Below, in pieces: positions 517 to 24,362 of a stretch of 45,491 nt of DNA. The stretch is taken from the IMG/VR virus record IMGVR_UViG_3300018083_000049, positions 1 to 45,491 of that record. One strand, given 5' to 3'. Origin of the DNA: a virus. Its lineage: Duplodnaviria > Caudoviricetes. The notes under the pieces are model-generated. The model saw only the letters and a program-made list of their open reading frames with translations. It did no database searches and was not told the DNA's origin. Each line of letters opens with the position of its first letter. The stretch's first letter is position 1. The position numbers and the translations under genes were made by a program.

Positions 517-545
517 TTGACACAAGCGTTGCATACCGCTATAAT
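517..545 (+). promoter_or_regulatory. Early sigma70 promoter P1
   Basis: TTGACA (517-522), 17-nt spacer, TATAAT (540-545): perfect consensus ~60 nt before the ATG at 608. Confidence 0.92.
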
Positions 546-607: not shown

Positions 608-1573
608 ATGGCTTCGAGAACCAAAGCTAAGGCAACCGCTCCCGTTGCTCCAATCGAGACCATCATGGCTAAGGACAGCATGCCGATGCTGCTTCCGCCG
701 AACGTTGTAACCGAGTTGATGAACTCGGCATATGACGATACCGCAACAGGTAGCAAGCTTACAGAACGCGGTTCGCAACGTGCGGTGTGCGCTGTCATGT
801 ACCACATGTATCAGGTGATCAGTGACGGCAAATGCAACCATGCATTGCGTGACTGTGCACTGGCCAGCAACCATGGCAAGGACACACGCGAGGCTATCAA
901 CGCAATCATGGTTGCGCATTTCGTCCCTGCTGCTGAGACAAATAGCGACATGGGCGATGATGAAGTGGGATCGATCAAAGACACACGTGATAAGCACGTT
1001 CGCTTGATCAAGCGCAGTGTCACGACTGCGGGTGTGCTCGAAGCAAGTGGCGTAGTTGCTGCCGACTTCAATCATACCACTGGTATGTTCACCGTCCCGA
1101 GTAAGATCATGTATCCGGCCGATGCTGCTGCACTGGACCGACTGCTTGATAATGCTTTCATTGACCTTGACGGTCAGACCATCTCGTTTCATGGTCGTAC
1201 GAGCAAAGGCAAAACGCGTGTCATCAACGCACGCGCTAGCATTGCACAAGTCTATGAGATCAACGCGCCTAAGCTTGGCAACGGTAAGCGTAAGGCTGTT
1301 GTGCCAGGAACACCACCGGTCACGCAATCGAATGCTCCTGCTACTGATACGAGTGTGAAGTTCACAAACGTAGAGGACGTGGCCGCACGCGTACCAGTGA
1401 TAATAATGATCGAAGCATTGCATTCAATCATCATTGAGAGCGGTCCAGCCGAACCAATCGCACGTGACACGTATGATGCAAAGACGTGGAACATGATAAG
1501 CGCATTGATGATGCGCTTTGATGAAAGCTTCAAGGCATGGGATGCTAAGCCCGTGCAAGCCAAAGCCGCATAA
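608..1573 (+). CDS. First early protein (321 aa), unknown function
   Basis: ORF 578..1573; ATG at 608 preceded by AAGGA; has its own promoter and terminator. Confidence 0.85.
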   Translation: MASRTKAKATAPVAPIETIMAKDSMPMLLPPNVVTELMNSAYDDTATGSKLTERGSQRAVCAVMYHMYQVISDGKCNHALRDCALASNHGKDTREAINAIMVAHFVPAAETNSDMGDDEVGSIKDTRDKHVRLIKRSVTTAGVLEASGVVAADFNHTTGMFTVPSKIMYPADAAALDRLLDNAFIDLDGQTISFHGRTSKGKTRVINARASIAQVYEINAPKLGNGKRKAVVPGTPPVTQSNAPATDTSVKFTNVEDVAARVPVIIMIEALHSIIIESGPAEPIARDTYDAKTWNMISALMMRFDESFKAWDAKPVQAKAA

Positions 1574-1590
1574 CCTAGCCTAGCCTAACC

Positions 1591-1620
1591 AAGCCCCGTT
1601 CCGAAAGGAGCGGGGCTTTT
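1591..1620 (+). terminator. Rho-independent terminator
   Basis: AGCCCCGTTCC-GAAA-GGAGCGGGGCT stem with GNRA loop, followed by T run, 17 nt after the stop at 1573. Confidence 0.92.
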
Positions 1621-1950
1621 CTGCGTCTGCGCTATGCCCATCCGTAGCACGCGCCCGAGCGTGAGCGAGGGCGCGGGTGGAGGGCGAGACTAGGTAAGAT
1701 GAATATACATATCGCCACCGGCGCACAGCACGCACGAGGCTGCGAATAATATACCTAACCTAACCTCGAACCATGACACCAACCTATACTCCTGTAAGCC
1801 ATACAACACAACAACTTGATTATACAACATAATCCCTCCCCACTTATGGACCAACCCCCAGCCAAAAGGCCCGTGGACCCGTGGATATTCTGCGTGCGAG
1901 ACGATTGCCCCCTTGCCCCAACCAACTATTTCGTGCCAAATGCAAATCAG

Positions 1951-2156
1951 GTGTGGACATTTGATCCGCTGTGTGCAGACTACTCATAGTTGCCGCAACG
2001 AGGCTGATCCCCTCATCCGTGCAGACAGCTAGAGTGTGGGCACTGCCCAAACTCAAAACGATCAAGTGTCCACACTCACAGAGGCTTTGCAAATCATGCA
2101 TTGCCCTGGGTAGAGGCATGTCTGCTGATCATACCCATCAGCGAAGCAGCAGACAT
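1951..2156 (+). ncRNA. Candidate structured RNA (or structured ssDNA origin element)
   Basis: Nested inverted repeats 1951-1966/2060-2075, 1968-1977/2020-2029, 2032-2054 and 2118-2127/2147-2156; loop-loop complementarity 2107-2112/2132-2137; no credible ORF; G-U wobbles favour the + strand. Confidence 0.45.
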
Positions 2157-2246
2157 CCACTACATAATACTTACTTAATCATTATATGATTACATCAACA
2201 TGATATGCATAGCATACCATGAGCGCAGCTATGTGTTACAGAGTAC

Positions 2247-2275
2247 TTGACACAAGCGTAATAATGTGCTATTAT
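2247..2275 (+). promoter_or_regulatory. Early sigma70 promoter P2
   Basis: TTGACA (2247-2252), N17, TATTAT (2270-2275) with TGn extended -10; shares TTGACACAAGCG with P1. Confidence 0.88.
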
Positions 2276-2361
2276 ACAAGAACAATTGGAGAGGGGAAGA
2301 GGAACTGCTAAATAGTCAGTATGTCTATGCAATATGCATATCACATGAAGGAACAAGACAA

Positions 2362-2544
2362 ATGCAACACAAGTCCACAGACACATTCGTATACGTAGTG
2401 CAGAACACAGCCGATGCACGCATGGATTATTATCTAACAGAACGCAGAGCCAAGGAAGTCGGTCTGCCAACAATACATGTGTATAACACAGGCGTGCAAT
2501 ACTACGATCCACATGGCAAGTACTTCCCAGAACGCGTGATGTAA
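2362..2544 (+). CDS. Hypothetical protein (60 aa)
   Basis: ORF 2266..2544; ATG at 2362 follows GAAGGA and lies downstream of P2. Confidence 0.6.
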   Translation: MQHKSTDTFVYVVQNTADARMDYYLTERRAKEVGLPTIHVYNTGVQYYDPHGKYFPERVM

Positions 2545-2545
2545 C

Positions 2546-2740
2546 ATGATCACAGGACGACTGAGCGGCAAACAAGTATCACGCATCATCGACATGTGGG
2601 ATGAAGGCCGCTCAGTCGGCTCTATCGCTGCTGAACTACGCGTATCGAAGAACATCATCACTGGACACCTGAACCGACTCCGTAAGCGTGGTGTCCCATT
2701 GGCGTCACGCAAATCACCTATAATAAGGAAGACGAAATGA
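2546..2740 (+). CDS. GcrA-like helix-turn-helix protein (N-terminal DNA-binding domain only)
   Basis: MWDEGRSVGSIAAELRVSKNIITGHLNRL matches the GcrA pattern LWxEGxSxxxIAxxLxxxSRNAVIGKxxRL; only 64 aa. Confidence 0.72.
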   Translation: MITGRLSGKQVSRIIDMWDEGRSVGSIAAELRVSKNIITGHLNRLRKRGVPLASRKSPIIRKTK

Positions 2741-3018
2741 GTACATTCGAACAGGCATACCGTGATCCATGCATGGCAATACCACGTGAACGCTTGGTTA
2801 TTACCGCGCCAGAGGCGCGACCGGCCGTGCTTGGCGATACGCAAGACGTGCTTGAACCTATACTTGAACAAAGCAAAGCAGCATCACCAACATCATGGCC
2901 AACTAGCATCAACCCACGTGAATGCGATCACCACTACCAACCACTACGTGAAGGACTCGTATGCTGTAGCATCTGCGGATGGTGGTGGGATGCGGACTTC
3001 GAGAGTAGTGTGCGATGA
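2737..3018 (+). CDS. Hypothetical protein with C-terminal Cys/His cluster (possible Zn ribbon)
   Basis: ATGA overlap with the upstream gene; CDHH...CCSICGWWW. Confidence 0.6.
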   Translation: MSTFEQAYRDPCMAIPRERLVITAPEARPAVLGDTQDVLEPILEQSKAASPTSWPTSINPRECDHHYQPLREGLVCCSICGWWWDADFESSVR

Positions 3019-3119
3019 ATGCCTTATTGAACTTCTGCGCCATAATCGTCGGTGCAATACACTTCCTCTGGTTACCAGCCCTACTCGTGTTCCTGATCTA
3101 CTACTGGTTCACACACTGA
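3015..3119 (+). CDS. Small membrane peptide (34 aa), paralog of 3300..3479
   Basis: Hand translation MNALLNFCAIIVGAIHFLWLPALLVFLIYYWFTH; ATGA overlap; shares N.CA...WLPAL with 3300..3479; below the ORF-track cutoff. Confidence 0.65.
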   Translation: MNALLNFCAIIVGAIHFLWLPALLVFLIYYWFTH

Positions 3120-3132
3120 AGGAGACAACCAC

Positions 3133-3303
3133 ATGATGACCAAGAAGGACTACATCCTAATCAGCACAGCCATACGCAGTATAGACAATGACCTGATACG
3201 TGTTAGCTGTGCACGTGTGCTTGCGTATGCATTGCGTGAGGACAACAGGAGATTTGATATAGACAAATTCATCAATGCATGTGGGAAGGAGCATGTGAAA
3301 TGA
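3133..3303 (+). CDS. Small protein (56 aa), paralog of 3760..3975
   Basis: Hand translation MMTKKDYILISTAIRSIDNDLIRVSCARVLAYALREDNRRFDIDKFINACGKEHVK; strong AAGGAG RBS. Confidence 0.8.
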   Translation: MMTKKDYILISTAIRSIDNDLIRVSCARVLAYALREDNRRFDIDKFINACGKEHVK

Positions 3304-3479
3304 TTGCATTCATACGAAACATATGCGCATGGTGCTTTGTCATTGTGATATACATCGGTTGGCTACCTGCACTTGCTATAGCATGCACGTTTATATTTGG
3401 TGTAGATGAGCCAACACCACAGGTCACATGTGTAACCACATCACGTGGTAACATCGTATGTGGAGAGAAGGTGCCATGA
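3300..3479 (+). CDS. Small membrane protein (59 aa)
   Basis: ATG at 3300 overlaps the upstream stop (ATGA); AAGGAG RBS; hydrophobic N-terminal half. Confidence 0.7.
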   Translation: MIAFIRNICAWCFVIVIYIGWLPALAIACTFIFGVDEPTPQVTCVTTSRGNIVCGEKVP

Positions 3480-3760
3480 CCAGCAACTTGATCAGTGGCT
3501 TTGCTGCGTTGCCATATAAGACACTAACACTTGAGCAATGCCTGATCGGCGTGCCCACTGGAACACGACTGCATCGCATCATCCGACTGGAGCATGGATG
3601 GCGATTGTGGTTGTCTACAAATGACTATATCCACGGCACCTACCTGGAGTGCCACAACAGTGGTATAGTCACACGCACAACAGTACGAGAGGATGAAGGA
3701 GACGAGACAATACCGATACGACCAGCCGATAACACAATCCGATATGGATGGAATAAGTAA
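3476..3760 (+). CDS. Hypothetical protein (94 aa)
   Basis: ATGA-coupled start within ORF 3458..3760. Confidence 0.7.
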   Translation: MTSNLISGFAALPYKTLTLEQCLIGVPTGTRLHRIIRLEHGWRLWLSTNDYIHGTYLECHNSGIVTRTTVREDEGDETIPIRPADNTIRYGWNK

Positions 3761-3975
3761 TGCATCGCAAGGACTACATGCTGCTCGCATCCATCATATG
3801 TGACATGGAGGATGCACACATGCGACGTGCATGTGCTAAGGAGATAGCATATGGTCTACAGAAGGCAGACAGATCATTCCAAATTGATCTGTTCCTAAGC
3901 GTATGCCTTGACGCTAGTAAACCGAGGACACTGATACTCAACATGAGTAAACAACCAGCCGATGGACGGCAATAA
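3760..3975 (+). CDS. Small protein (71 aa), paralog of 3133..3303
   Basis: MHRKDYMLLASII...RRACAKEIAYGLQKADRSFQIDLFLSVC; TAATG overlap. Confidence 0.75.
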   Translation: MHRKDYMLLASIICDMEDAHMRRACAKEIAYGLQKADRSFQIDLFLSVCLDASKPRTLILNMSKQPADGRQ

Positions 3976-3981
3976 CACAAG

Positions 3982-4365
3982 GTGAATGATATGACAATCA
4001 ATGCGACCCTCAAAGGTGCTGAGCTTGCCAACTACTTGGCTATCACACTCAGTGACCTGGAATTCGAATTGCTCGTGCGTAATCGAATCAAGAATGAATT
4101 CGCACGGCTGCATAGGCATGAGCCAAATCTCAGTGAGTCATACAACACATGTCGTTTCGGTATGTCGTGGAGTGATGAAAGTGAATGGCATGTGCGTGTT
4201 GGTGAGAACTACAACAAATCCGCAGAGGTAGATGGACAGGTGTTGTCACGTTGCTGTAGTGATGTGGCCAAGTTGTATGAGATGAAGAATGGCAACAAGT
4301 TGAGTTTGTTGTTGCCTGCTCCTGAGGTTGATGTGGATGTGGGTAGCGAAGACAAGAAGTGGTGA
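3982..4365 (+). CDS. Hypothetical protein (~125 aa)
   Basis: ORF in the operon chain; start is either GTG 3982 or ATG 3991. Confidence 0.7.
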   Translation: MNDMTINATLKGAELANYLAITLSDLEFELLVRNRIKNEFARLHRHEPNLSESYNTCRFGMSWSDESEWHVRVGENYNKSAEVDGQVLSRCCSDVAKLYEMKNGNKLSLLLPAPEVDVDVGSEDKKW

Positions 4366-4457
4366 GTCAGATCGTCGGCGCGAAGGGGATATGCTATGCA
4401 TAGGTGGCGATACGTGCATTCGTGCAATCGTCGTTATCATTAATCCCCTGGGGTTTA

Positions 4458-4480
4458 GGGGGCACGCTTTGCGTGCCCCC
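4458..4480. promoter_or_regulatory. Perfect GC-rich hairpin just upstream of the HNH gene
   Basis: GGGGGCACGC-TTT-GCGTGCCCCC, 12 nt before ATG 4493; no U-tract. Confidence 0.55.
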
Positions 4481-4492
4481 GTTCTATAGGAT

Positions 4493-4978
4493 ATGGCCAT
4501 GCCAATAACCAACGAACCAAAGGACGTGTTCAAGTTATATTCCATGAACGTAGCTCCAGACGAATGCTGGCAATGGCATGGTGCATGGGGCGGTCAACCA
4601 CGTGAGAAGCGTCCTTACTTCATGTGTGGTGGCGTGCGAACAGCGGCATATCGTTGGGTGTATGAGCTGGTCCATGGTGTGCGGTTGCGACATGATCAAC
4701 TCGTACTCCATAGCTGTGATCGAGGTGGATATCCATGTGGCTGTGGTAATCCCGCACACCTCCGTCTTGGCACACGCACAGACAATACCAACGACGCAAT
4801 GGAACGCGAACGACATGGTATGCCTAAACACGTGGTGCGTGCTATCCGCAAACTCCTCAGTGAGGGCCGAACACAAGAGGAAGTGGGCAAACTCTATGGC
4901 CTCTCGCGCACAGGCATTGGACGTATCGCACGAGGCGAAATCCACTCGCACGTAGGAGATGAGCCCCCCGCGTGCTAA
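4493..4978 (+). CDS. HNH endonuclease with C-terminal HTH (homing-endonuclease-like)
   Basis: CWQWHG...AYRWVYELVHG...VLHSCD...CGNPAHLRLGTRTDN, then TQEEVGKLYGLSRTGIGRI HTH. Confidence 0.9.
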   Translation: MAMPITNEPKDVFKLYSMNVAPDECWQWHGAWGGQPREKRPYFMCGGVRTAAYRWVYELVHGVRLRHDQLVLHSCDRGGYPCGCGNPAHLRLGTRTDNTNDAMERERHGMPKHVVRAIRKLLSEGRTQEEVGKLYGLSRTGIGRIARGEIHSHVGDEPPAC

Positions 4979-5199
4979 CCTTCCATGTGGACGCTCCGAG
5001 TTCACCAATGACCCTGATCACATCCCTCGCCAATGTGGGCACCCAAATCCTCGCTAGCCTCACACCACAACTGCTTGCCATCATACTACTCAACATCGTG
5101 TTCATTGGCTTGTTCATCTGGTTCATCGATGCACGAGCCAACCATACCGTCATGGTCATGCAACAACTGCTTGACGCTTGCATACTGAAAGGGAAATGA
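4972..5199 (+). CDS. Small single-pass membrane protein
   Basis: LLAIILLNIVFIGLFIWFI TM segment; start GTG 4972 or ATG 5008. Confidence 0.65.
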   Translation: MLTFHVDAPSSPMTLITSLANVGTQILASLTPQLLAIILLNIVFIGLFIWFIDARANHTVMVMQQLLDACILKGK

Positions 5200-5409
5200 A
5201 TGAATTGGATAGAACCAACCGAGGAACAAATGATACTTGCCTGTCATGCCTACCTGGAGGCACTGCATGAGGACATGCACAACGACCGGCCAGTGGATTG
5301 GTCCGATGCCAGATGGAACCAACATGTGCATGACCAAATGGAATTCACGCGCCAACTTATGCGACCAGTGGTCGGTGCGATCATCAACCAACGTAAGACA
5401 GTGGAATGA
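5200..5409 (+). CDS. Hypothetical protein (69 aa)
   Basis: Abuts the upstream stop; part of the operon chain. Confidence 0.65.
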   Translation: MNWIEPTEEQMILACHAYLEALHEDMHNDRPVDWSDARWNQHVHDQMEFTRQLMRPVVGAIINQRKTVE

Positions 5410-5413
5410 ATGA

Positions 5414-5647
5414 ATGCAGAATGCACAATCAATCGAACGGGCAATACAACTCATCGCACGGCAAATAGAACACGTCCATGCCCGTGTGGATGATCTGCAA
5501 GCTATGGTCACGACCCTCCAAGCCACCAGTGCACAGCACGAGTACAAACTAGAGGAGCTAACCAACCGTGTCCGGAATCAAACCTATCAAACCAATCCAA
5601 ACGACACTCCCAACAGTGACAAACTCAGTCACACCGAAATCACTTAA
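5414..5647 (+). CDS. Hypothetical coiled-coil protein (77 aa)
   Basis: Heptad-like helical sequence; part of the operon chain. Confidence 0.55.
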   Translation: MQNAQSIERAIQLIARQIEHVHARVDDLQAMVTTLQATSAQHEYKLEELTNRVRNQTYQTNPNDTPNSDKLSHTEIT

Positions 5648-5760
5648 ACAACCAGATGTGCCTAAATTCCATGGCCCATCTGCTAAACGACTGCAAACAA
5701 TCACGCCACGACGTGTGGCCGGTGCCATAATCGCTGGCAAACCCAAACTGAGTATCTAAC

Positions 5761-5985
5761 ATGACACGCTTCAGCAAACTAATACTTGATGCACAAGGTA
5801 AACCAGTCGAAACTGATATACGTGACATCCAGCAATCAGTTATAATGAATTGCCCAAACTGTATCCTCTTGGCTAAACATTACCGTGCAGATGGTAGTTG
5901 CATGTGTGATGATCCGCTCAACCATGATATGACTGCGTGGGGATATACGTGGGATACTAAAACCAACATGTGGACAGGAGAATAA
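5761..5985 (+). CDS. Hypothetical protein with CxxC/CxC motifs (74 aa)
   Basis: CPNC...H...CMCDD; ends 1 nt before the next gene. Confidence 0.65.
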   Translation: MTRFSKLILDAQGKPVETDIRDIQQSVIMNCPNCILLAKHYRADGSCMCDDPLNHDMTAWGYTWDTKTNMWTGE

Positions 5986-5986
5986 C

Positions 5987-6937
5987 ATGCCACTCGATGC
6001 AACCTGGGATAACGTCAGCCCTATCCCACCCGAACACGATCCGTTCGCTGAACACAATGCCAAACCATCGTCCATCATGTTCCCAGTAGGTGAACGCAGA
6101 GTAGGATGGCAAACGCGTGCTGGTGGATACCAACGTATCAACACACATAAGGCCATCATCCGTGTTCCAGATGTGGATGATACAATGACACTCAATGAGG
6201 AGAGTGTGCATGTGCTGGGTGTGGTGGGCACTGGCTATCAACTCATCCACAACAAGGAACTGTTTGGGCGTGTGGAGCAAACCATGCGCAAGGTAATGCC
6301 TGCACATACCTTGGATGGAGTTCAAATTAAGGACAGGGTGTCAGGATATGGACGTATGTGCTACCGCGAATACATCTTCCCCAACATCAAGTGCAACCTG
6401 GGACGTGATGCAAAGTCAGACATTGCGTTCCGAACCATCGTGCAGAATGGCTATGGCGGTTCCGCACTACGCATCCACAGTGGAGCAATCGATTTCTTCT
6501 GCACCAATGGCATCATCAGTGGTGAACACCAGTCAACATACAACAAGCACACGAGTGGCCTCGTGATCACAGGCGTGGATCGTATCATCGAACGTGCACT
6601 GGAGACGTTCGCGAATAACCAAACCAAGTGGGCAAAGTGGACGCAAACACCTGTGAAACATGCAGCTGCGATGGATTTGTTCAAGGAATTGGCCGCGAGT
6701 GACAAACTATGCGAGAACCTGGGCATGCAATACCTGCGTGAACAGGAAGAACGTGGACCGAACTTGTGGTCGGTGTATAGTGCAATGACATACTACGCAT
6801 CACATGCGGAGGGTGAGTTCAAGTTGCGTGCTACAACTGAAGCACAGGATAGTGTTGCCGCGACTATGCTAAAGCGTGAACTCAATGTGGCGCGTTGGGT
6901 TGAGACACCAGCGTGGAGACGACTAGAGTTGGCGTAG
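5987..6937 (+). CDS. DUF932/DUF945-family phage/plasmid protein
   Basis: VLGVVGTGYQLIHN, NGYGGSAL...FFCTNG, KHT and NLWSVYSAMTYYASH motifs; GGAG RBS. Confidence 0.8.
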   Translation: MPLDATWDNVSPIPPEHDPFAEHNAKPSSIMFPVGERRVGWQTRAGGYQRINTHKAIIRVPDVDDTMTLNEESVHVLGVVGTGYQLIHNKELFGRVEQTMRKVMPAHTLDGVQIKDRVSGYGRMCYREYIFPNIKCNLGRDAKSDIAFRTIVQNGYGGSALRIHSGAIDFFCTNGIISGEHQSTYNKHTSGLVITGVDRIIERALETFANNQTKWAKWTQTPVKHAAAMDLFKELAASDKLCENLGMQYLREQEERGPNLWSVYSAMTYYASHAEGEFKLRATTEAQDSVAATMLKRELNVARWVETPAWRRLELA

Positions 6938-6939
6938 AC

Positions 6940-6968
6940 TTGACACAAGCACATGGTTGTGCTATACT
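6940..6968 (+). promoter_or_regulatory. Sigma70 promoter P3
   Basis: TTGACA (6940-6945), N17, TATACT (6963-6968) with TGn extension; TTGACACAAGC shared with P1 and P2. Confidence 0.88.
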
Positions 6969-6997
6969 ATAGGTATAATGAAGAAAGGAAAGGACAA

Positions 6998-7186
6998 GTG
7001 AATATCTACATATCCACTTCACTGCGTAGCCAGATGAAGGAGTATGGTGATACGATCAACTGGTCAAAGGTTGCAGCAGATGCATTCGTATCCGCAATGC
7101 AACAGGAGAAGGATCGTATCGATCAACGCCATGCACGTAGGCGTCTAACACAACGAGCATATTCATGGATCAACGAAGGGACCTAG
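6998..7186 (+). CDS. Ribbon-helix-helix (CcdA/VapB-antitoxin-like) DNA-binding protein
   Basis: GTG start after AAGGA; beta strand NIYIS, a helix, then INWSKVAADAF, as in RHH antitoxin-like repressors. Confidence 0.6.
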   Translation: MNIYISTSLRSQMKEYGDTINWSKVAADAFVSAMQQEKDRIDQRHARRRLTQRAYSWINEGT

Positions 7187-7189
7187 CAG

Positions 7190-7636
7190 ATGCTATCGTC
7201 AGACAAGAACAAACTCGTGGACAAAGTGAATACCGCCTTTGCCAGTATCGGCAAGGGCAATGGCACCAAGATGCCACCATCCACCAACAACGCAGACAGC
7301 TATGCGTATGACCTATGGGTATCACACCAACTCGTGTCACTTGCAAACAAACGAAAGGAGTTAGCTGAGAAGGCATGTATCAAAGCCGGTATCATGCTGG
7401 ATAAAGAGAAGGACCCACGTCCTGAAGGCACGAAGGAAGTGCTGTTCAGTGGCGATAACGTAGCCATTAGCTTGAATGTGAGTGGTGCGGCTACTCGTAT
7501 CAACACTGAGAAGCTGCTTGCTTATCTGGTTGAGCATGGTGTGCCAAACAAGACACTGGACGAAGCCATTGCAAGTGCATCGTCTAAGTCCCGTCCTGCT
7601 CACGTGTTCTCTACCTACCTACTGACCAACGATTGA
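7190..7636 (+). CDS. Hypothetical protein (148 aa)
   Basis: Clean ORF with AAGGGA RBS. Confidence 0.8.
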   Translation: MLSSDKNKLVDKVNTAFASIGKGNGTKMPPSTNNADSYAYDLWVSHQLVSLANKRKELAEKACIKAGIMLDKEKDPRPEGTKEVLFSGDNVAISLNVSGAATRINTEKLLAYLVEHGVPNKTLDEAIASASSKSRPAHVFSTYLLTND

Positions 7637-7654
7637 CGTAGGCCAAGCATAAGT

Positions 7655-7682
7655 GCACCATGTCCTCACAAGGGCATGGTGC
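7655..7682 (+). terminator. Intergenic hairpin, possible terminator or processing site
   Basis: GCACCATGTCC-TCACAA-GGGCATGGTGC followed by tgcttgtgtt. Confidence 0.5.
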
Positions 7683-7705
7683 TGCTTGTGTTAAGGAGTA
7701 ACAAC

Positions 7706-7963
7706 GTGGGTAAGGTAATACACATGAGTGAACGCAAACCAATACCGCCTAAGTCACAGACATTCGAGCACGGTGGACAGAAGTATACGTGCACGTTCGA
7801 TCCACGTGCGCCTAAGTCTGAGCAATGGGTGTGGACAGTAAACTATAAGCGCACATACCCATACATGGGCTCGGCTCCTACACTGGAGAGTGCCAGTGTC
7901 AAGGCACGCAAGCAAATCCATGCGCTGAACAAGCACATCATCGCAATGGAGGAGAACGAATGA
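7706..7963 (+). CDS. Hypothetical protein (85 aa)
   Basis: GTG 7706 after TAAGGAG within ORF 7676..7963. Confidence 0.7.
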   Translation: MGKVIHMSERKPIPPKSQTFEHGGQKYTCTFDPRAPKSEQWVWTVNYKRTYPYMGSAPTLESASVKARKQIHALNKHIIAMEENE

Positions 7964-8136
7964 GTATATCTCCTGTAGTAATCGAACAACTTAGGCAAGC
8001 CATCAAGGAATTGGAGCCTCCATTCTTGGCCTTGCCAGAGGCAGGAGGAAACCCTGTGATCCTTGCTTATCGGCGAGGTGCACGTGACGCATACCAACGT
8101 GTGCTAGACACATTGCTGGAAGAACAAGATGAATGA
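7960..8136 (+). CDS. Hypothetical protein (58 aa)
   Basis: Hand translation MSISPVVIEQLRQAIKELEPPF...DTLLEEQDE; ATGA overlap, GGAGGAG RBS; fills the gap. Confidence 0.7.
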   Translation: MSISPVVIEQLRQAIKELEPPFLALPEAGGNPVILAYRRGARDAYQRVLDTLLEEQDE

Positions 8137-8410
8137 TACACCAACCGAACGTGCTGCTATCAATCAGCTATCAGTTGATGAACTTGATGCCATGCTCGCA
8201 GCTATACGTGAGCGGCGACTGGCACGTGTGCAGAAGCTAGAAGCTATAGCCAAGGTCAAGGCTGACGACGCTCGCCTCGTTGATTGGTTGTCGTATGAGA
8301 AAGCATACAAGGTAGCTAAGCGTGCACTCGATAAGCTGGAAGTAGAAGAAGCCAAGGTGGAGAAGCTGATCCACAAGGTTCGACTGAAGGTGTTCGAGTT
8401 ACAAGCATAG
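8129..8410 (+). CDS. Hypothetical coiled-coil protein (93 aa)
   Basis: Helical, charged; part of the operon chain. Confidence 0.75.
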   Translation: MNDTPTERAAINQLSVDELDAMLAAIRERRLARVQKLEAIAKVKADDARLVDWLSYEKAYKVAKRALDKLEVEEAKVEKLIHKVRLKVFELQA

Positions 8411-8420
8411 GAACAAGCAC

Positions 8421-8594
8421 ATGACAATAGAAACAGACAAGGCATGGGATGCACTTGTGAAATCTTGTATAGAGTGGGCCAATCACATGGATCAATGGGA
8501 GAAGTTCAAGTTCAACACAGAGTTCGGAACCGTCTATGTTTCCATTATGTTGGAGACAGAATATCCAGACAGTTTCGATCTTATAAATAAATAG
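8421..8594 (+). CDS. Hypothetical protein (57 aa)
   Basis: Hand translation MTIETDKAWDALVKSCIEWANH...PDSFDLINK; AGGA RBS; fills the gap. Confidence 0.65.
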   Translation: MTIETDKAWDALVKSCIEWANHMDQWEKFKFNTEFGTVYVSIMLETEYPDSFDLINK

Positions 8595-8606
8595 AAGGCC
8601 AAGCAC

Positions 8607-9020
8607 ATGGAACTGAACAAGACAAGCACACTCGTAGTCAAGAAGTGGATAGAAGATAAGCGTATCGCATTGGTCAACGAGATGACTGCGATCAAGGCAC
8701 GCATTGATGTGTATACACAGATGCTCAAGGAGTTGGAGCAACAGCAACCAGTTGTTGTGTCCGTGAAACGTCCAAACAAAAGAGGACGACCAGCAACCAG
8801 TAAGACAGACAACGCGATTGCTCTTGCACTAGAAGCTGCGGGTAGTAAAGGTCTTACAGCCAGAGAACTAGCAGAGGTTGCACATCTACCAATCGGCACA
8901 GCAGGCAGCCGTCTTACACATTGGAACAAAGCAGGTAAGGTGAAACACATAACACCTAAGTACTTCATCGTGCATAGCACACAGGAGGATAACAACGTGG
9001 AACAAGGAGGTATGCAATGA
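8607..9020 (+). CDS. DNA-binding protein: N-terminal coiled coil, KRGRP hook, C-terminal winged HTH
   Basis: GLTARELAEVAHLPIGTAGSRLTHWNKAGKV wHTH pattern. Confidence 0.7.
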   Translation: MELNKTSTLVVKKWIEDKRIALVNEMTAIKARIDVYTQMLKELEQQQPVVVSVKRPNKRGRPATSKTDNAIALALEAAGSKGLTARELAEVAHLPIGTAGSRLTHWNKAGKVKHITPKYFIVHSTQEDNNVEQGGMQ

Positions 9021-9262
9021 GCATCAAGGCACGTGATGTGCGAACGAACATCGCAGCCAATGGCTTCGAGCGTGGCGTTGTCATCACGCTTGAGTCTATA
9101 TGCGAAGACCTCAGTGCATTGCGAACCAACATGCAGGATGCTGCTGAGTTGATCGTTGGTATCAGTGAACAGACAGAACGCTTCCTAATCATCGGTAATG
9201 GCATACAAGCCAAGCTGGATATGTTGGAGAGGAATGTACGGGATGATGAACCACAAGGCTAG
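9017..9262 (+). CDS. Hypothetical protein (81 aa)
   Basis: ATGA overlap, AAGGAGG RBS. Confidence 0.75.
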   Translation: MSIKARDVRTNIAANGFERGVVITLESICEDLSALRTNMQDAAELIVGISEQTERFLIIGNGIQAKLDMLERNVRDDEPQG

Positions 9263-10343
9263 CTTCCGTATGGCAACTGCCGATGATGTGCATCTGGAGA
9301 CGTATGATCACACCAAGTTGAGCGCGGTCAACACATGTCCCACGTATGGGATACTCAGGTATCAATTGCATAAGCAGATGCCGTCCGAAGGCAGAGCCAT
9401 GGCACTGGAGGCTGGCAGCGCAATGCATGAATGCTTCTCGTTCATCCGGCTGGTGTCGTTGATGCAACAGCATGATGCCAGACCTGCATTCCAGGATGCG
9501 TTATGGGACCACCAGATGATGCGCCTGTTTGGTGCGGAGCGTATGGTATATATCAACAATGCACTGGAGATGTGTATCGATAAGATAGACGTGGCCAAGA
9601 CAGGTGGTCTGGCTGTGTTGGAGACATCTGGGTTCTACGATGATCCACGTGATAAGCGACGCACGCTGAGCAACCTGGAGGAATGCCTGTATGCGTATGT
9701 CAATCGATGGCGGTGGGATCATCCCGTGTGGATGCGTGATGTAGACAACCCGCTATCGGATGTGGGTATCGAGATACCGTTCGATCTTGTGGTAGATATC
9801 AGTGGCCTGCCTATCATACCGAAAGCACACATGGAGTTCCGCTTAACGGGTCGGATCGATGGCATCCATTACAACACACGCAATGAGTTGAGTATCCATG
9901 ACAACAAGACAGCAAGCAGGCTAGGTGATGCGTGGTCTAACTCATTCCTGCTCAGTCATCAGATCACGGGCTACTGTATTGCTGCTGCTACGTTCATCCA
10001 GGAACCTGTCAACAAGGCAGAGGTACTTGGCTTGGCTATCCCTCTACCTCGCACTTATGACCTTGGTGGTTATGTGCGCGAGGTGGTTCCACGATACGAC
10101 TACCACTATGCCAGATGGATAGACTGGTTAGTGCATACCATCCAGTTGACCAGACAGTATGCTGGTAATCCATTCGATGCACCGAAGTATACACACAGTT
10201 GCAATCGCTACTTCCGGCCATGCTCAATGATCCCATTCTGCGATGCGGATGACGAGGAACAACATCGTATCGTGAATGATATGGTGGACAATGAATGGTC
10301 GCCACTGAACAAACCAATCCTGGATGGGATTGGCAACGAGTGA
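9243..10343 (+). CDS. PD-(D/E)XK exonuclease, Cas4/AddB-like with probable Fe-S staple
   Basis: GSAMH, TGRIDG...IHDNKT, QITGY; N-terminal CP plus C-terminal C-x6-C-x5-C; start trimmed to ATG 9243. Confidence 0.85.
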   Translation: MMNHKASFRMATADDVHLETYDHTKLSAVNTCPTYGILRYQLHKQMPSEGRAMALEAGSAMHECFSFIRLVSLMQQHDARPAFQDALWDHQMMRLFGAERMVYINNALEMCIDKIDVAKTGGLAVLETSGFYDDPRDKRRTLSNLEECLYAYVNRWRWDHPVWMRDVDNPLSDVGIEIPFDLVVDISGLPIIPKAHMEFRLTGRIDGIHYNTRNELSIHDNKTASRLGDAWSNSFLLSHQITGYCIAAATFIQEPVNKAEVLGLAIPLPRTYDLGGYVREVVPRYDYHYARWIDWLVHTIQLTRQYAGNPFDAPKYTHSCNRYFRPCSMIPFCDADDEEQHRIVNDMVDNEWSPLNKPILDGIGNE

Positions 10344-10418
10344 CCACATGTTGTGTGTAGTTGACTAATCGCGATACCACATGTTGTGGTATTGACACAT
10401 GCAAAACAGGAGCCGAAC

Positions 10419-10580
10419 ATGGATGAAGTCGTAATTGCAAGAACACTCAAAGCATTGGCTGTGTTAGCTGAGAAGATCAGTGACGTTGATACGAAGGAGG
10501 CATTGATACTCGTCTGTGCCGTGTTGATCGAACACAATAAATCCATCCAGGAGTTGGTTGAGGCAGGAGATGATTACTAA
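10419..10580 (+). CDS. Hypothetical protein (53 aa)
   Basis: ATG 10419 after AGGAG; TAATG overlap with the next gene. Confidence 0.65.
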   Translation: MDEVVIARTLKALAVLAEKISDVDTKEALILVCAVLIEHNKSIQELVEAGDDY

Positions 10581-11416
10581 TGGATGATGAACCGCCATTG
10601 ATGGGTGGAGGCATACCGATAACGTCTCCACGTGTGGACAACGTGCAACTACAGATGCTGCTATGGGGTGATAGTGGTAGTGGTAAGACAACGCTCGCCG
10701 CGACCGCACCTGGAGTCAAGCTGTTCCTCATGCTGGACCCCGGTGGTGAACTATCACTGGCTGATCGTAATGATATAGCTGTGCTCAATCTGGCAAGTGA
10801 GTCACCGATCAGGTTGATCACTCAACTTGGTTTGCCTGATCCGTATGGTATTGGTAAGATACTGCTTGCCCGTCCCGACATCGAGACCGTGGTGGTTGAT
10901 AGCATGACCACGCTTGCGTATGCGGCATTGCAGAACAGCGTGATATTCAACAAGTCAACGATCGAACGGCCGGGTATGCATGGATACACGTTTCGCAATG
11001 CCAGTGTGCTGCGTGCGACCATTGCAATCATGCGGATATGTGCGGAACACAAACGCCACCTGATCCTCATCACGCATGAGGGTGCGGCGGATCGTAATAG
11101 CGAGGGTGTGCCTATCAGTGTGACCATGGCACTGAGCGAGGGCACAGCTAACCAAGTTGGTCTGCGCTTCAATGAGGTGTGGAACCTAAGTGATACAGGC
11201 ACGGAACGTCGTATCGCCATACGTCCGTGCCGATTGCGTAAGCCTATGAAGTCTCGCTTGTTTGTATCCGACAAGCCTGAGTTTGTATGGCACTATGATG
11301 CTGATACACAACAAGGCGAAGGCATAGCCGAGTGGTATCACGCATGGCAAGCTGGTGGTGGGAAGAAGCTAGCGTTGCCTGTCGCAACCCCAAGTAGAGG
11401 AGTAATAAAAAAGTAA
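10580..11416 (+). CDS. AAA_24/Sak4-like RecA-fold ATPase (recombinase)
   Basis: Walker A GDSGSGKTT, Walker B VVVDS, LILITH; lies between the exonuclease and the SSB-like gene. Confidence 0.82.
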   Translation: MDDEPPLMGGGIPITSPRVDNVQLQMLLWGDSGSGKTTLAATAPGVKLFLMLDPGGELSLADRNDIAVLNLASESPIRLITQLGLPDPYGIGKILLARPDIETVVVDSMTTLAYAALQNSVIFNKSTIERPGMHGYTFRNASVLRATIAIMRICAEHKRHLILITHEGAADRNSEGVPISVTMALSEGTANQVGLRFNEVWNLSDTGTERRIAIRPCRLRKPMKSRLFVSDKPEFVWHYDADTQQGEGIAEWYHAWQAGGGKKLALPVATPSRGVIKK

Positions 11417-11539
11417 GGCCATCATGCCAAGCACGATGACCTTAATAGTTGCACAAGTGTGAACAAGACAAACCACATGCATCCCACAGGTGGAAGTCTT
11501 CTCCACATATAATCCACATCCATATGAGGATCAACCCCC

Positions 11540-11953
11540 ATGTCAGAATCTATCCTGAGTTTCAGCAACGACATCACCAACGCACCACCGCCTCCGCTTC
11601 TACCCGTAGGTCCATACCCTGCGGAAATCATCGGTGCGATTAAGAAGCAAGGCAATGCTGGTGAGTTCGCACAGATCACGTTCCGTATCAATGCGGAGTC
11701 CTATCCTGCCGACTTCCAGGATGGTGATCCTGATGGTATCATTCTTCAGTACAACTTCCTGAAGACTGCTGACACTCCCACCAACATGCATCGCTGGCGT
11801 GTATTCCTTGAGAAAATCGGTGGTCCGCTCGGTCGGTCCATTGATCTCAACTCACTCATTGGCCTGACGGCTACGGTTGATCTGACGCATCGTGCGCCAG
11901 ACGCATTCCGTGATGAGGCAAGCGTGCAGATTTCGCGTATCCTCGCAGCATAA
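11540..11953 (+). CDS. Putative ssDNA-binding protein (DUF669-like)
   Basis: PLLPVGPYPAEI...DLNSLIGLTATVDL OB-fold-like pattern; position after Sak4 is typical. Confidence 0.6.
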   Translation: MSESILSFSNDITNAPPPPLLPVGPYPAEIIGAIKKQGNAGEFAQITFRINAESYPADFQDGDPDGIILQYNFLKTADTPTNMHRWRVFLEKIGGPLGRSIDLNSLIGLTATVDLTHRAPDAFRDEASVQISRILAA

Positions 11954-11979
11954 GTTGTGCATAAGTGTGGTCACATGGC

Positions 11980-12008
11980 TTGCGTTGTGTGATCACATGA
12001 CCTATTAT
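11980..12008 (+). promoter_or_regulatory. Putative promoter P4 with a palindromic operator in the spacer
   Basis: TTGCGT, N17, TATTAT; spacer contains TGTGATCACA; ~30 nt before ATG 12040. Confidence 0.6.
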
Positions 12009-12039
12009 CTGGGCGTTACCAAACCAACAGGAGTTGAAT

Positions 12040-12330
12040 ATGTCTGCTACCCAAACGGCTGCGTCTACCAATGGTGAGACCCCAGCCAAGCGTAAGCGTA
12101 AGCGCAGTGCGAGCGTGGCCAAGCCTGCGTTCTTCGTCATCCAGGTGTTGGATGACAATGGTGAGCCTACGCACTTCGACAAGTCACGTATCCGTCTCGT
12201 GAAGGTGGAGCGTAATGCTGAAGCCATCATGGAACTGATGGATAATGAGGACTATCCTCATGCATTCTACCTGCGTGGCATCGTTCCAGTGTCACGTCCG
12301 GGCCAGCCGATGAGGGCTGCTGCGGAGTAA
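12040..12330 (+). CDS. Hypothetical protein with basic KRKRKR patch (96 aa)
   Basis: AGGAG RBS; flanked by its own promoter and a hairpin. Confidence 0.8.
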   Translation: MSATQTAASTNGETPAKRKRKRSASVAKPAFFVIQVLDDNGEPTHFDKSRIRLVKVERNAEAIMELMDNEDYPHAFYLRGIVPVSRPGQPMRAAAE

Positions 12331-12336
12331 TATAAC

Positions 12337-12368
12337 AACGCACCGCTGTCTCTTGGCAGCGGTGCGTT
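12337..12368 (+). terminator. Strong hairpin, probable terminator/attenuator
   Basis: AACGCACCGCTG-N8-CAGCGGTGCGTT, 12-bp perfect stem 6 nt after the stop; weak U-tract. Confidence 0.65.
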
Positions 12369-12407
12369 CCTCTCCCTGCGGTTTGGTATACAAGAAGTGG
12401 AACAACC

Positions 12408-13706
12408 ATGGACATCGTGTATGATGACAAGCAGCATGCTGCTATAGATGCATGCTGTGATGTGCGTAAGCGTATCGTTGCTGTGACTGGCAAAGCCGGA
12501 ACAGGCAAGACACTGATTATGAAGGAGGTATCCGACAGGCTAAGTGAGGCTGGCTATGGTGTGCAGACCAGTGCACCAACAGGCAAGGCAGCCAAGCGCA
12601 TACGTGAGGTGACTGGCCTCGATGCGATGACCAACCATCGTATGCTTGGCTACGGTATGCCAGTAGACCTGGAGGTTGAAGACGAGAAGAAAGGTGGAAC
12701 CAAGATGGTACAGGTGTCCACTGGTCCACGATATGATCGTGCCAAGCCATTGCAATACGACACCATACTGTGTGATGAATATGCCATGGTGAACCAGGAC
12801 ATACACCGCGCACTGATCAATGCACTGAAGTCAGGCGCACGACTGTGCATGTTTGGTGACGTAAACCAGCTACGTCCTATCGAAGAGGATAAGAGATTAG
12901 ATGGTCAACCTTCTGCCTTCATGGCGGCGCTTGAGAAGTTTGGTGGGCTTGTGCTGGACACGATCCATCGGCACGATGAGGGGTCCGGTATCGCAAGTAA
13001 TGGTGCACTTATCCTGCAAGGACGCATGCCCCGCAACAGTAACGACTTCGCGTTACGGCAAACGGACAACCCTGTCCGTGCAGTGCAGGAATTTGTCGAG
13101 TTGTCCCTTGCGTCTGGACACGACTACTCAGATAATGATCATCAAATCATCACGTGTATGAACAAGAGTTGGATCGGCACGCAGAAGCTAAACATCGTAT
13201 TGCAATCCATGTTCTGGGATCGTGCTCGTCCATTCATTGAGTTACCACGTTACCGCATGGGCAATGTGCAGCAGCCACCTATCCGCGTGCAGGTAGGCAG
13301 CAAGGTGGTGTATACCGCGAACACATATGATCTGGGCCACGACGATGGTAGCTTCGCGTTCAATGGTGAAGTTGGCAAGGTCATCAACATCAACTACGAG
13401 GAGGGTAGTGTCGAGATAGACTTTGGTGATCGTACCGTGATCATCCCGCCGCTGTTGGTGGTTGTGTATAGTGATGGGCGTGCAGTGGAACAGGACCCAC
13501 GCAGGAACATAGACCATGCGTATGTGCTGACGACACACAAGTGCCAAGGCAGTGAGTATAAGCACGTGGCGTACGTGTTGAACAAGGCAACCATATGGGC
13601 GCAGTCTCGTCGTAACTTCTATACAGCAGTGACACGTGCACGTGAGTATTGCACTGTGTTCACCGACATGATGTCGTTGAGCAAGTCAACCAAGCATGTA
13701 GGATAG
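12408..13706 (+). CDS. RecD/Dda-like SF1B DNA helicase
   Basis: GKAGTGKT, APTGKAA, DEYAMV, GDVNQLRPI, AYVLTTHKCQGSEY, YTAVTRAR. Confidence 0.93.
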   Translation: MDIVYDDKQHAAIDACCDVRKRIVAVTGKAGTGKTLIMKEVSDRLSEAGYGVQTSAPTGKAAKRIREVTGLDAMTNHRMLGYGMPVDLEVEDEKKGGTKMVQVSTGPRYDRAKPLQYDTILCDEYAMVNQDIHRALINALKSGARLCMFGDVNQLRPIEEDKRLDGQPSAFMAALEKFGGLVLDTIHRHDEGSGIASNGALILQGRMPRNSNDFALRQTDNPVRAVQEFVELSLASGHDYSDNDHQIITCMNKSWIGTQKLNIVLQSMFWDRARPFIELPRYRMGNVQQPPIRVQVGSKVVYTANTYDLGHDDGSFAFNGEVGKVININYEEGSVEIDFGDRTVIIPPLLVVVYSDGRAVEQDPRRNIDHAYVLTTHKCQGSEYKHVAYVLNKATIWAQSRRNFYTAVTRAREYCTVFTDMMSLSKSTKHVG

Positions 13707-13711
13707 AAGCC

Positions 13712-16213: not shown

Positions 16214-16392
16214 CACTTCACCACATCAGACTAACACATGGACTTAGTAAATCTGTTCCTTTGCCTGAGGATGCAGATGGTATCAATGGTATATGTCGTT
16301 TCCGCAATCTGTTACTGATTACAACGACCTGTGGTAGATTATTCTCATGGGATGGTGAGTCTGATACCGTCGATGAGATCAAGTTGCCATGA
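16186..16392 (+). CDS. Hypothetical protein (68 aa)
   Basis: Bridges the polymerase and the next gene (ATGA overlap). Confidence 0.5.
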   Translation: MEQDFESEVTLHHIRLTHGLSKSVPLPEDADGINGICRFRNLLLITTTCGRLFSWDGESDTVDEIKLP

Positions 16393-17636
16393 ATCCATAC
16401 TATAACAGTGTGCCTGTGGACTCATTCATCGCACGCTACTTGCGGTTCATGTCTACGCAAGAGACAGCGCATGCATACGATCTATGGGGTGCACTGTGGT
16501 GTCTGGCATGTGCATGTGGTCGTGCTACTTATGTAGCGCGGCCACGTGCGCCTGTCTACCTCAACATGTATCTCATACTGGTAGGTGACAGCGGTATACC
16601 ACGCAAGACCACCAGTGTGAACATGGCATTGGGCCTAATACGCGACCTGTATGCGGGTGATGACACGCTCGGTATCATCGATGCCAAGCTGACCAGTGAA
16701 CACCTTGATCACATAATCCATGAGCGGTCTAAGCTGCATGGCAGTGGTCAGGTTGCCATCGGTGTGCCTGAGTTGGCCGTATTCATGGGCAGTGAAGCCT
16801 ACTTGGTCAACATGCCCGCTACACTCACGGATCTGTACGATTGTCCAGCAAGTAGACAAGGTGGAACCATATCACGTGGCCTGTCTGAGCAACGTGATGT
16901 GTGGGTATCATTGATCAGTGGTAGCACACCGATCTGGTTGCTGAAGACAGTCAACCCGAAGGTCGTGGAGGGCGGTTTCTCATCACGCTGCATGTTTGTC
17001 GTATCGAATGAGCCTAAGCAGAGCATACCATGGCCCATGGAGGAGGACAATGCGAATGCCAGAGATGATCTTGTCGATACTCTGCATTACACTCGTCGCC
17101 GTGCTACTGAATGTGATCCTATTCGTATTATAGACTCAGCACTTGGCCTGTTCAGTGAATGGTATGCAACACGTGATCACAGTACTGATCCATTCAAGCA
17201 ATCGTTCGAAGCGCGTGAGGACTCACACGTATTGCGCATTGCCGCACTGCTTGGGATCAATGACGATAGTTGGGAGATTCAACACAAGCATGTTGCGCTT
17301 GCCATCAAGCTGATTGATGCTATCAAGATGTCGAGCGGTGCCATGTTCGAGTATGGCATATCACGAAGCAAGTATGCTGCTGCATTCGATGTGATACGTA
17401 GCCTGTTGATCAGCAAAGGTATGGACCCCATACCCAGACACATATTGCAACGCAAGTGTAGGTATTGGATACACAGCAGTGAGTTATCGGTGCTTATGGA
17501 ATGTATGCATGAGTTCAAGGTGGTGCAGCGGTTCCAGTCCATGCCGGATCGAGGACGGCCTACGGAATATTTCAGGGGGACCGAGAAGCTGCTGGACCGG
17601 GGGATCGGTGAGAAGATATTAGATCATTTCACTTAG
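16389..17636 (+). CDS. DUF3987-like AAA+ ATPase / replicative helicase-like protein with C-terminal wHTH; no primase domain
   Basis: NMYLILVGDSGIPRKTT P-loop, LTDLYDC, SLISGSTP, GGFSSRCMFV, HVLRIAALL, C-terminal GRPTEY. Confidence 0.7.
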   Translation: MNPYYNSVPVDSFIARYLRFMSTQETAHAYDLWGALWCLACACGRATYVARPRAPVYLNMYLILVGDSGIPRKTTSVNMALGLIRDLYAGDDTLGIIDAKLTSEHLDHIIHERSKLHGSGQVAIGVPELAVFMGSEAYLVNMPATLTDLYDCPASRQGGTISRGLSEQRDVWVSLISGSTPIWLLKTVNPKVVEGGFSSRCMFVVSNEPKQSIPWPMEEDNANARDDLVDTLHYTRRRATECDPIRIIDSALGLFSEWYATRDHSTDPFKQSFEAREDSHVLRIAALLGINDDSWEIQHKHVALAIKLIDAIKMSSGAMFEYGISRSKYAAAFDVIRSLLISKGMDPIPRHILQRKCRYWIHSSELSVLMECMHEFKVVQRFQSMPDRGRPTEYFRGTEKLLDRGIGEKILDHFT

Positions 17637-23915: not shown

Positions 23916-24362
23916 TTATATAGCCTTCATGTATTGCATCTCGGTTAGCGTGTAGCCGTGTTTGGGGAATATCGGCTCCACGTTGTAAAGTGTCCGATAT
24001 CCGTGTATGATCATCTTCACGTCATACATCTTCAGCAGTGGTTCAGCAGCATGCAGTAGCTTCTTGGCTATGCCCTTGCCACGATGCTCCAACTTCACTG
24101 CGAGTGTGCCACACGATGCGAATATTGTGGTCTTGTGGAATGGATGCAGATTGATGAAGTATGTGACGAAGCCATGCAGCTTGTCGTGGTCCCGATAGGT
24201 GACGACCACGAACTTGTCTTGTGCTTCTAGCTTTGCCATCTGATCCCAGTCCATATCGAGTGGTGGCATGAATTCATGTGCTATCGTCTTCTCGTAGTAC
24301 TCGACCACGATCGCATTCAGCAAGTGTGAACACTTCTTGAGTGGTTCTACTTGTATGCTCAA
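23916..24362 (-). CDS. GNAT-family acetyltransferase
   Basis: LAVKLEHRGKGIAKKLL acetyl-CoA motif A; C-terminal KHGY. Confidence 0.88.
   Translation of the reverse strand: MSIQVEPLKKCSHLLNAIVVEYYEKTIAHEFMPPLDMDWDQMAKLEAQDKFVVVTYRDHDKLHGFVTYFINLHPFHKTTIFASCGTLAVKLEHRGKGIAKKLLHAAEPLLKMYDVKMIIHGYRTLYNVEPIFPKHGYTLTEMQYMKAI

Follow-up and report, generated by a model that had tools for sequence, protein, structure and literature searches.

A covariation-backed two-state structured element downstream of gene 1 in an uncultured tailed phage genome

Introduction

Non-coding DNA of a tailed phage (Duplodnaviria; Caudoviricetes) was found to contain a large set of nested inverted repeats, which raises the question of whether the repeats are a functional structure and, if so, whether they act as RNA, as folded single-stranded DNA or as a duplex. 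The repeats lie in IMG/VR record IMGVR_UViG_3300018083_000049, positions 1 to 45,491; this whole stretch of 45,491 nucleotides is called the window here. An initial annotation, made from the letters alone, described two mutually exclusive folds and proposed either an undescribed phage RNA or a replication primer similar to ColE1 RNA II. Folding analysis, comparison with homologs and analysis of the genomic setting showed that the observation is real: the element is a two-state motif, backed by covariation and catalogued nowhere among the resources searched.

Results

Genomic setting of the element

The source record (G000) is a whole virus contig rated 100% complete, and another contig of the same phage bridges both window ends with 13 extra bases between them. 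Early and replication genes occupy 608-17636 of the + strand and encode, among others, a Sak4-like annealing protein, an exonuclease, a Dda-like helicase, a family A polymerase and a DUF3987 protein; structural genes are on the - strand. The GC skew tracks gene orientation and does not locate the origin. Two acetyltransferase-like genes were seen in the tail region (23916-24362 and 25447-25914), and a late gene between portal and terminase (39861-40862) showed a sub-threshold match to ART-PolyVal (ADP-ribosyltransferase).

Gene 1 stands alone behind a perfect consensus promoter (Table 1) and is a candidate for a first-expressed host-takeover or anti-defence protein. Its positional counterparts in 11 relatives share 13-24% identity, while the terminases of the same phages share 73-90%. 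It matched nothing significantly in Pfam, in the PDB or among viral folds, and its structural model is confident (pLDDT 71).

The element is situated between the terminator of gene 1 and the second early promoter. No consensus promoter was found from the terminator to the element and no terminator 3' of it. The block preceding the element is invariant over 1803-1820 and includes, at 1809-1821 on the - strand, a match to the IHF consensus; this consensus occurs 3 times against 1.3 expected (15 of 100 shuffles), and a looser form is present in 8 of the 12 relatives whose sequence extends to the second promoter. A weak + strand promoter candidate (1805-1833, with a -10-like hexamer at 1828-1833) scores 8/12 in five of the six distinct sequences of the element described below. 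Between block and element, the second copy of the GTGG box is a perfect DnaA box in three of the six, the window copy being two mismatches off, and the domain 1850-1940 shows no significant folding in any of them (z +1.0 to -1.0). Many palindromic repeats of the TATGCA/TAGCAT type were observed in the divergent promoter region (45090-45491 and 1-516) and again at 2200-2216 and 2325-2346. In one relative (L083:1800-3200), a palindromic DnaA-box-like repeat is present in several copies on both sides of gene 1.

Table 1. Features of the window discussed in the text
Feature	Position	Strand	Basis
Sigma-70-type consensus promoter of gene 1	517-545	+	12/12
Gene 1, 321 aa, function not assigned	608-1573	+	ORF call, comparison with relatives
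Intrinsic terminator-like hairpin, GAAA loop	1591-1622	+	Terminator scan
DNA-type mini-hairpin, GCGNNAGC cap, tandem GA mismatches; pas/ssi-like site	1650-1675	+	Motif class from PMC13037366 (available part)
Conserved block with IHF consensus match and weak promoter candidate	1803-1833		Kept in L256 too
Double GTGG box	1870-1889	+	Alignment of homologs, DnaA-box scan
Box A, containing the 5' arm of outer stem P1 (1951-1966)	1946-1966	+	Inverted repeat, folding
Stem P2 (1968-1977/2020-2029), closing a junction	1968-2029	+	Folding, covariation
Box D: forms local hairpin P4 (fold 1) or the 5' strand of the alternative helix (fold 2)	2032-2054	+	Folding
Box E: partner of A (fold 1) or D (fold 2)	2060-2077	+	Folding, covariation
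Covarying hairpin P5 (2079-2108) and hairpin P6 (2110-2163), the latter conserved in this form in 3/6	2079-2163	+	Folding
AT-rich tract	2164-2230		67% AT over 2156-2230
Second early promoter	2247-2275	+	11/12; kept in all homologs
Family A DNA polymerase, N-terminal UDG-like domain	13649-16213	+	Profile match
Stand-alone DUF3987 helicase of SF6 type; a fused primase domain was not recognised	16389-17636	+	Profile match; PMC4889955 (available part)

Fold of the element in the window

The 16-bp outer stem of the initial annotation (1951-1966/2060-2075, one G-T pair) was recovered as an inverted repeat. The inner stem 1968-1977/2020-2029, the hairpin 2032-2054 and the 13-bp alternative helix 2032-2044/2065-2077 were likewise present, the inner stem with one G-G mismatch that had not been recorded. 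Two small hairpins had been placed inside this stem, and only GAGG/CCTC stood, as a 4-bp stem with a 7-base loop (2000-2014); GACTA/TAGTT did not, the partner of the invariant GACTA being found in the window only, and the homologs back a palindrome at 1989-1999 in its place. The junction closed by P2 contains the invariant unpaired GACTA (1978-1982), the variable, near-perfect palindrome and the 4-bp stem. In the comparison with shuffled sequences that had been suggested, 1945-2082 folded at -58.4 kcal/mol on the + strand (z -5.84, reached by 0 of 200 shuffles) and with z -3.30 on the - strand. The folded unit exceeds the domain described at first: it covers about 215 non-coding bases of the + strand (approximately 1946-2163), including the hairpins 2079-2108 and 2110-2163 and a local hairpin, 1946-1965, into which box A folds when box E is absent or taken.

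The tRNA identity denied earlier was not found by ARAGORN either, which detected no tRNA or tmRNA. The Rfam search of the window gave no match at gathering score; five matches at E up to 10 were far under gathering, the best one near the element scoring 15.6 bits against 95. No GNRA or UNCG loop is present in the element. Motifs of hammerhead, HDV-like and twister ribozymes, SRP RNA and CsrA sponges were considered and none was seen. Judged by eye, the 7-base loop could form a pseudoknot with the 3' arm of P1 in just three of the six sequences, and this pairing was dropped. The region was also rightly described as having no credible ORF: the overlapping frames 1971-2189 (+) and 1844-2119 (-) have no Pfam match, and a conserved ORF was rejected because the spacing of the anchor motifs does not preserve the frame from homolog to homolog, and in one of them no frame is open across the element.

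Homologs of the element

No close relative was found among isolated phages (terminase identity at most 26%). Terminase relatives in IMG/VR amounted to 150 stretches, of which the best 80 loci (73-100% identity) were used as the set of relatives. The element was detected by blastn in one of these 80 loci, many of which stop short of the spacer (L035, 70.6% identity over 293 bases). A metagenome scan with a pattern in which boxes D and E were fixed yielded at least 119 loci from 43 of 64 parts. Loci from such scans were mostly unrelated (27/28, 11/13, 9/11 and 113/119 in separate scans), and the true homologs by blastn among the listed loci were L142, L166, L181, L208, L216 and L245. L208 is the window sequence and L216 repeats L181; with these duplicates removed, and with the window and L035 counted in, the distinct set comprises six sequences. 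Since the pattern fixed both boxes, D and E are necessarily invariant in four of the six; L035 carries both boxes though it was found through its terminase.

A covariance model scored the homologs at 123-155 bits and everything else at 32 bits or less in 100 sources and 92 of the 119 metagenome loci, giving no remote homolog in either set; the 27 loci left out share one unrelated 30-base match. The spacer gave only four short chance matches by blastn in 50,697 phages, none of them at the element, and no match in 72,556 plasmids. Bacterial and archaeal genomes contained no motif match and no confirmed terminase relative, and therefore no host was assigned. The 64-aa helix-turn-helix protein at 2546-2740 matches GcrA weakly (E 0.0019, under the cut-off), which only hints at an alphaproteobacterial host.

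Nested inverted repeats built on the same GTGTGGACA core were seen in unrelated viral and metagenome contigs (L111, L115, L116, L122 and many of L137-L251). They are often accompanied by DnaA-like boxes and are far more common than simple chance hairpins suggest. These repeats are possibly a widespread origin- or mobile-element motif.

Covariation supports both folds

Analysis of the six distinct sequences revealed that compensatory changes preserve the inner and outer stems as well as the 4-bp hairpin. For fold 1 (A with E, and the D hairpin; alignment A3), 94.3% of the cells are paired, compared with at most 58.5% in slid controls. Double changes occur in 13 cells against 5.6 in shuffled alignments, a value reached by 0 of 500 shuffles, and the count of doubly changed pairs stands out less (35 of 500), all these covariation counts being inflated by relatedness in a small set (n=6, roughly two subgroups). 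Both sides are changed in 5 of the 10 pairs of P2, A-U is exchanged for C-G in the 4-bp stem, and the inner part of P1 exists as four different complementary sequences. P5 covaries too, and the 88 bases 3' of E fold with z -2.4 to -6.0 in all six sequences. The distance from A to GACTA is constant (20 bases in 6/6) and other spacings vary; the palindrome that separates GACTA from the 4-bp stem is different in each homolog, being 9-11 bases long with a single central base or none.

Fold 2 (D with E) is preserved as 13-18 contiguous pairs in all six sequences and is longer than the A:E pairing in four homologs, so the two exclusive folds of the initial annotation are a kept feature. Two columns just beyond the search pattern are paired in 6/6 with three pair types each. 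With the RNA model, fold 1 is favoured over fold 2 by 11.4 kcal/mol in the window, by 0.3-2.8 in three homologs and by 7.7-8.6 in two. Before E exists, local self-folding is predicted at -3.3 to -7.7 kcal/mol for A and -9.1 to -13.2 for D. The wobbles are G-U on the + strand as reported at first: the anchored helices, counted without P2 of L245 (gap), contain 21 G-T and 1 A-C, which fixes the + strand but not the chemistry (RNA or DNA). The pairings are under selection on the + strand, and both folds are kept.

A bare local duplication-inversion had been named as an alternative source of the repeats. Boxes A and D do share descent, and perfect palindromes can come from template switching. That the element is the neutral outcome of such an event is nevertheless hardly credible and largely refuted already, as the stems covary well above the shuffled alignments and the element folds significantly in all six sequences.

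Replication genes and DNA-type mini-hairpins

The missing primase noted at first was confirmed at the level of recognisable domains: none of five primase families was found in the genome with positive controls run, the RepB control being weak. A divergent primase may still be encoded among the small ORFs of the phage. A PHROG label of 'DNA primase' on 16389-17636 was rejected, as it belongs to the stand-alone 415-aa DUF3987 helicase. DUF3987 is an SF6-type helicase usually accompanied by a separate or fused primase, according to the available parts of PMC4889955 and PMC11724360. None of the best 150 relatives of the phage protein is longer than 492 aa, and hence none looks primase-fused.

A pas-like site had been placed near the element, and it corresponds to the mini-hairpin at 1650-1675, about 270 bases upstream on the same strand. 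Of 17 spacers, 9 have + strand stems of at least 4 pairs with a C(GNA)G cap, against a mean of 0.5 and a maximum of 4 in 200 approximate dinucleotide shuffles, and 2 have them on the - strand; the 17 spacers leave out near-duplicates and loci with no called gene 1. The four-base GCGNNAGC cap type adds three further spacers, the window included. A hairpin capped by GCGNAGC or GCGNNAGC on the template strand is thus seen in 12/17 spacers and beside the element, and the element itself has none. GNRA loops in spacer stems number 11 on the + strand and 0 on the - strand. The mini-hairpin caps mark the primase origins of G4, St-1 and alpha3 and RSF1010 ssiA, and are stable as DNA and much less so as RNA, in the part of PMC13037366 available.

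Boxes A, D and E contain no DnaA box at one mismatch or fewer and are at least two mismatches from the consensus. TGTGGRCA is not enriched genome-wide (8 against 7.4).

The element as a possible single-strand priming site

The reading ranked first, because it is the most specific single mechanism, is that the element, as folded single-stranded DNA, would assist a host enzyme in priming the second strand. We assign it a probability of about 0.38; as classes, single-stranded DNA and RNA of any kind stand about even. The context tilts slightly toward DNA through the absence of a primase, the mini-hairpins, the IHF site and the lack of an own consensus promoter or terminator.

We infer that the phage polymerase and helicases would displace the + strand 5' to 3' and so expose the element. 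Boxes A and D would first make local hairpins, and box E would then pair either with D or with A, the latter being the ground state predicted for the window. Fold 1 would be a long duplex ending in an open junction. The element contains invariant TGGACA and CAGACT 16 bases apart, a -35-like hexamer (5/6 match) lying in P1 and a -10-like hexamer (3/6 match) at the edge of the open junction. The hexamer pair scores in all six homologs at a relaxed cut-off of 8/12, which also yields many other matches, and the -35-like hexamer is indistinguishable from the repeated box core. Because the hexamers are spaced like -35 and -10 elements, as at sso and Frpo, host RNA polymerase could prime at fold 1; by this analogy the spacing is a weak hint to that enzyme. 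Alternatively, DnaA or DnaG might be loaded. The element would in either case be an accessory site beside the family-wide mini-hairpin and not an essential origin.

The lack of a conserved GNA mini-hairpin in the element and its absence from one close relative (L256) are points against a priming site. Folding is significant with both RNA and DNA energy models, which do not discriminate. About 10% of the pairs are wobbles, and this level together with a kept switch is typical of RNA, against DNA. Single-stranded DNA and RNA motifs are hard to separate computationally, comparative methods included, as stated in the available part of PMC5737381. A switchable promoter mimic, in which the -35-like duplex and open junction capture host RNA polymerase and the second fold releases or silences it, could operate either as a single-stranded priming site or as a 6S-like RNA; we regard it as rather unlikely.

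Another origin-related reading, a primer similar to ColE1 RNA II, was put forward in the initial annotation with extension by the phage PolA. The transcript would fold in one of the two states, form an R-loop near the AT-rich tract and serve the phage polymerase as a primer; the two alternative partners of a single strand, the tract downstream of the element, the family A polymerase and the missing primase agree with it. In ColE1, extension of the primer by Pol I exposes pas (available part of PMC3167613), and pas must therefore sit downstream of the primer, whereas the pas-like hairpin here is upstream. The element also has no strong promoter of its own and no antisense promoter conserved at consensus level, and it is absent from a close relative, so that this proposal is now very unlikely.

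Relatives without the element

One relative, L256, which was found by the upstream block alone, keeps the terminator, mini-hairpin, IHF block and promoter and has no element. Its gene 1 matches that of L039, whose terminase is 90% identical to that of the window, so L256 is as closely related as the phages that do carry the element. At L256:3102-3332 a 76-aa cysteine-rich ORF with a ribosome-binding site and no Pfam match takes its place. In L070, L083 and L084 ORFs follow the first terminator, and in L088, L089 and L091 only about 65 bases are present where the element would be. In L057 (2400-2560, reverse strand, after gene 1) a different element was observed: a hairpin whose loop contains a DnaA-like box comes first, followed by an 11-bp hairpin with a 3' arm that could instead pair with a segment immediately downstream.

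A small ORF in the place of the element in an equally close relative favours an accessory RNA gene. The element may specify a small RNA of about 130-215 bases from the early strand, acting in trans and most likely a decoy of a host protein, a reading nearly as probable as the priming site. Its transcription could start at the weak promoter at 1805-1833 or continue past the terminator of gene 1, with trimming at P1; a specific guess is a 6S-like decoy of RNA polymerase, the two folds being precursor and mature or off and on states. The covariation applies equally here, the G-T excess comes with C-G/U-G/U-A series, and conserved unpaired bases lie at the multibranch junction. The local A and D hairpins suit co-transcriptional folding, and fully palindromic variable hairpins could promote RNA dimers. 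ORFs at the same place in relatives and the weak promoter candidate also agree, and the element remains about 70% identical while gene 1 drops to 24%, which points to a host partner. Against a small RNA stand the lack of a consensus promoter, a terminator, GNRA/UNCG loops and an Rfam family. No cis-regulatory output is visible: the folds do not form a terminator or mask a ribosome-binding site, and the element is separated from the next gene by a strong promoter.

Contig ends of relatives were seen to cluster in two places, at window 1620-1800 and some 300-700 bases beyond the first late gene, which may reflect a genome terminus or a hairpin that is hard to assemble. Among 35 of the 80 loci examined, 9 of 23 contigs with a whole gene 1 stop 51-573 bases past it, before the IHF-like site, and L142 and L166 start at one homologous base near window 1720. 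These ends and the recurrence of the IHF-like site would suit an array of duplex DNA sites near a genome end, with an IHF site and boxes for terminase, DnaA or an injection pause and with folding secondary. In T5 a comparable region contains DnaA boxes in inverted repeats within non-coding DNA (10.1101/866236, available part). Such an array is unlikely, since duplex binding predicts neither compensatory changes in P1, P2, P3 and P5 nor a wobble bias on one strand; moreover, other intact contigs pass through the region, and hairpins alone can break assemblies.

Discussion

The element is a compact motif supported by covariation, with no counterpart in Rfam, isolated phages or plasmids. It was not described in Rfam or in the literature found, including the available parts of PMC6127211 and PMC5714925. 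It is absent from supplementary files 3-6 of a viral structured RNA survey (PMC10690425), whose remaining files may hold the motif. Its setting is a large uncultured phage group, and the genome in the window has a polymerase and two helicases and no recognisable primase. If it acts as DNA, a tailed phage would have borrowed from plasmids and small ssDNA phages their use of single-strand origins and added a switch; if as RNA, it would be a new two-state phage small RNA, exchangeable for a protein gene. With six natural variants and two defined folds at hand, it could be tested on synthetic oligonucleotides using host enzymes, with no need for phage culture.

Comparison with known systems

The element shares features with several known systems and falls wholly within none of the named families. 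Like the injection-stop region of T5, it is non-coding, follows the first transcription unit and has inverted repeats with DnaA-like boxes (10.1101/866236, available part). The same part of that source describes eight paired DnaA boxes, a terminal repeat and family-wide occurrence in T5; the boxes of the element are far fewer and poorer. Unlike the T5 region, the element is a covarying single-strand fold and is not family-wide.

In 6S RNA, P4 CI and P1 C4 the ends are closed by a long stem, with an open junction and an alternative fold. The element differs from these in being branched, not a rod or cloverleaf, and gives no useful Rfam score. ColE1 RNA II has one segment with two alternative partners. 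The element likewise has one such segment and occurs with a family A polymerase; unlike in ColE1, the pas is on the wrong side and the element is dispensable in relatives. No RNA I-like partner of it was found, and no consensus promoter on either strand.

The neighbouring hairpin at 1650-1675 and its counterparts bear the same caps as G4, St-1, alpha3 and RSF1010 ssiA (PMC13037366, available part), and box-like sequence within a stem is also seen in the A site of the ABC primosome (PMC6127211, available part). Unlike these primase and primosome hairpins, among which the ColE1 pas also counts, the element has no cap, and its stem boxes are two mismatches from the DnaA consensus.

From sso of rolling-circle plasmids and ICEBs1 and from Frpo of F, the element differs in residing in a tailed dsDNA phage, in which no rolling-circle Rep or relaxase was found, and in having two kept folds, a weak -10 match and no match in the plasmids searched. 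As in sso and Frpo, described in the available parts of PMC4595007 and PMC11541004, it is a multi-stem non-coding unit within the 150-340-base range, specific to one strand, in which structure is kept over sequence; candidate promoter-like hexamers are also situated in the predicted fold.
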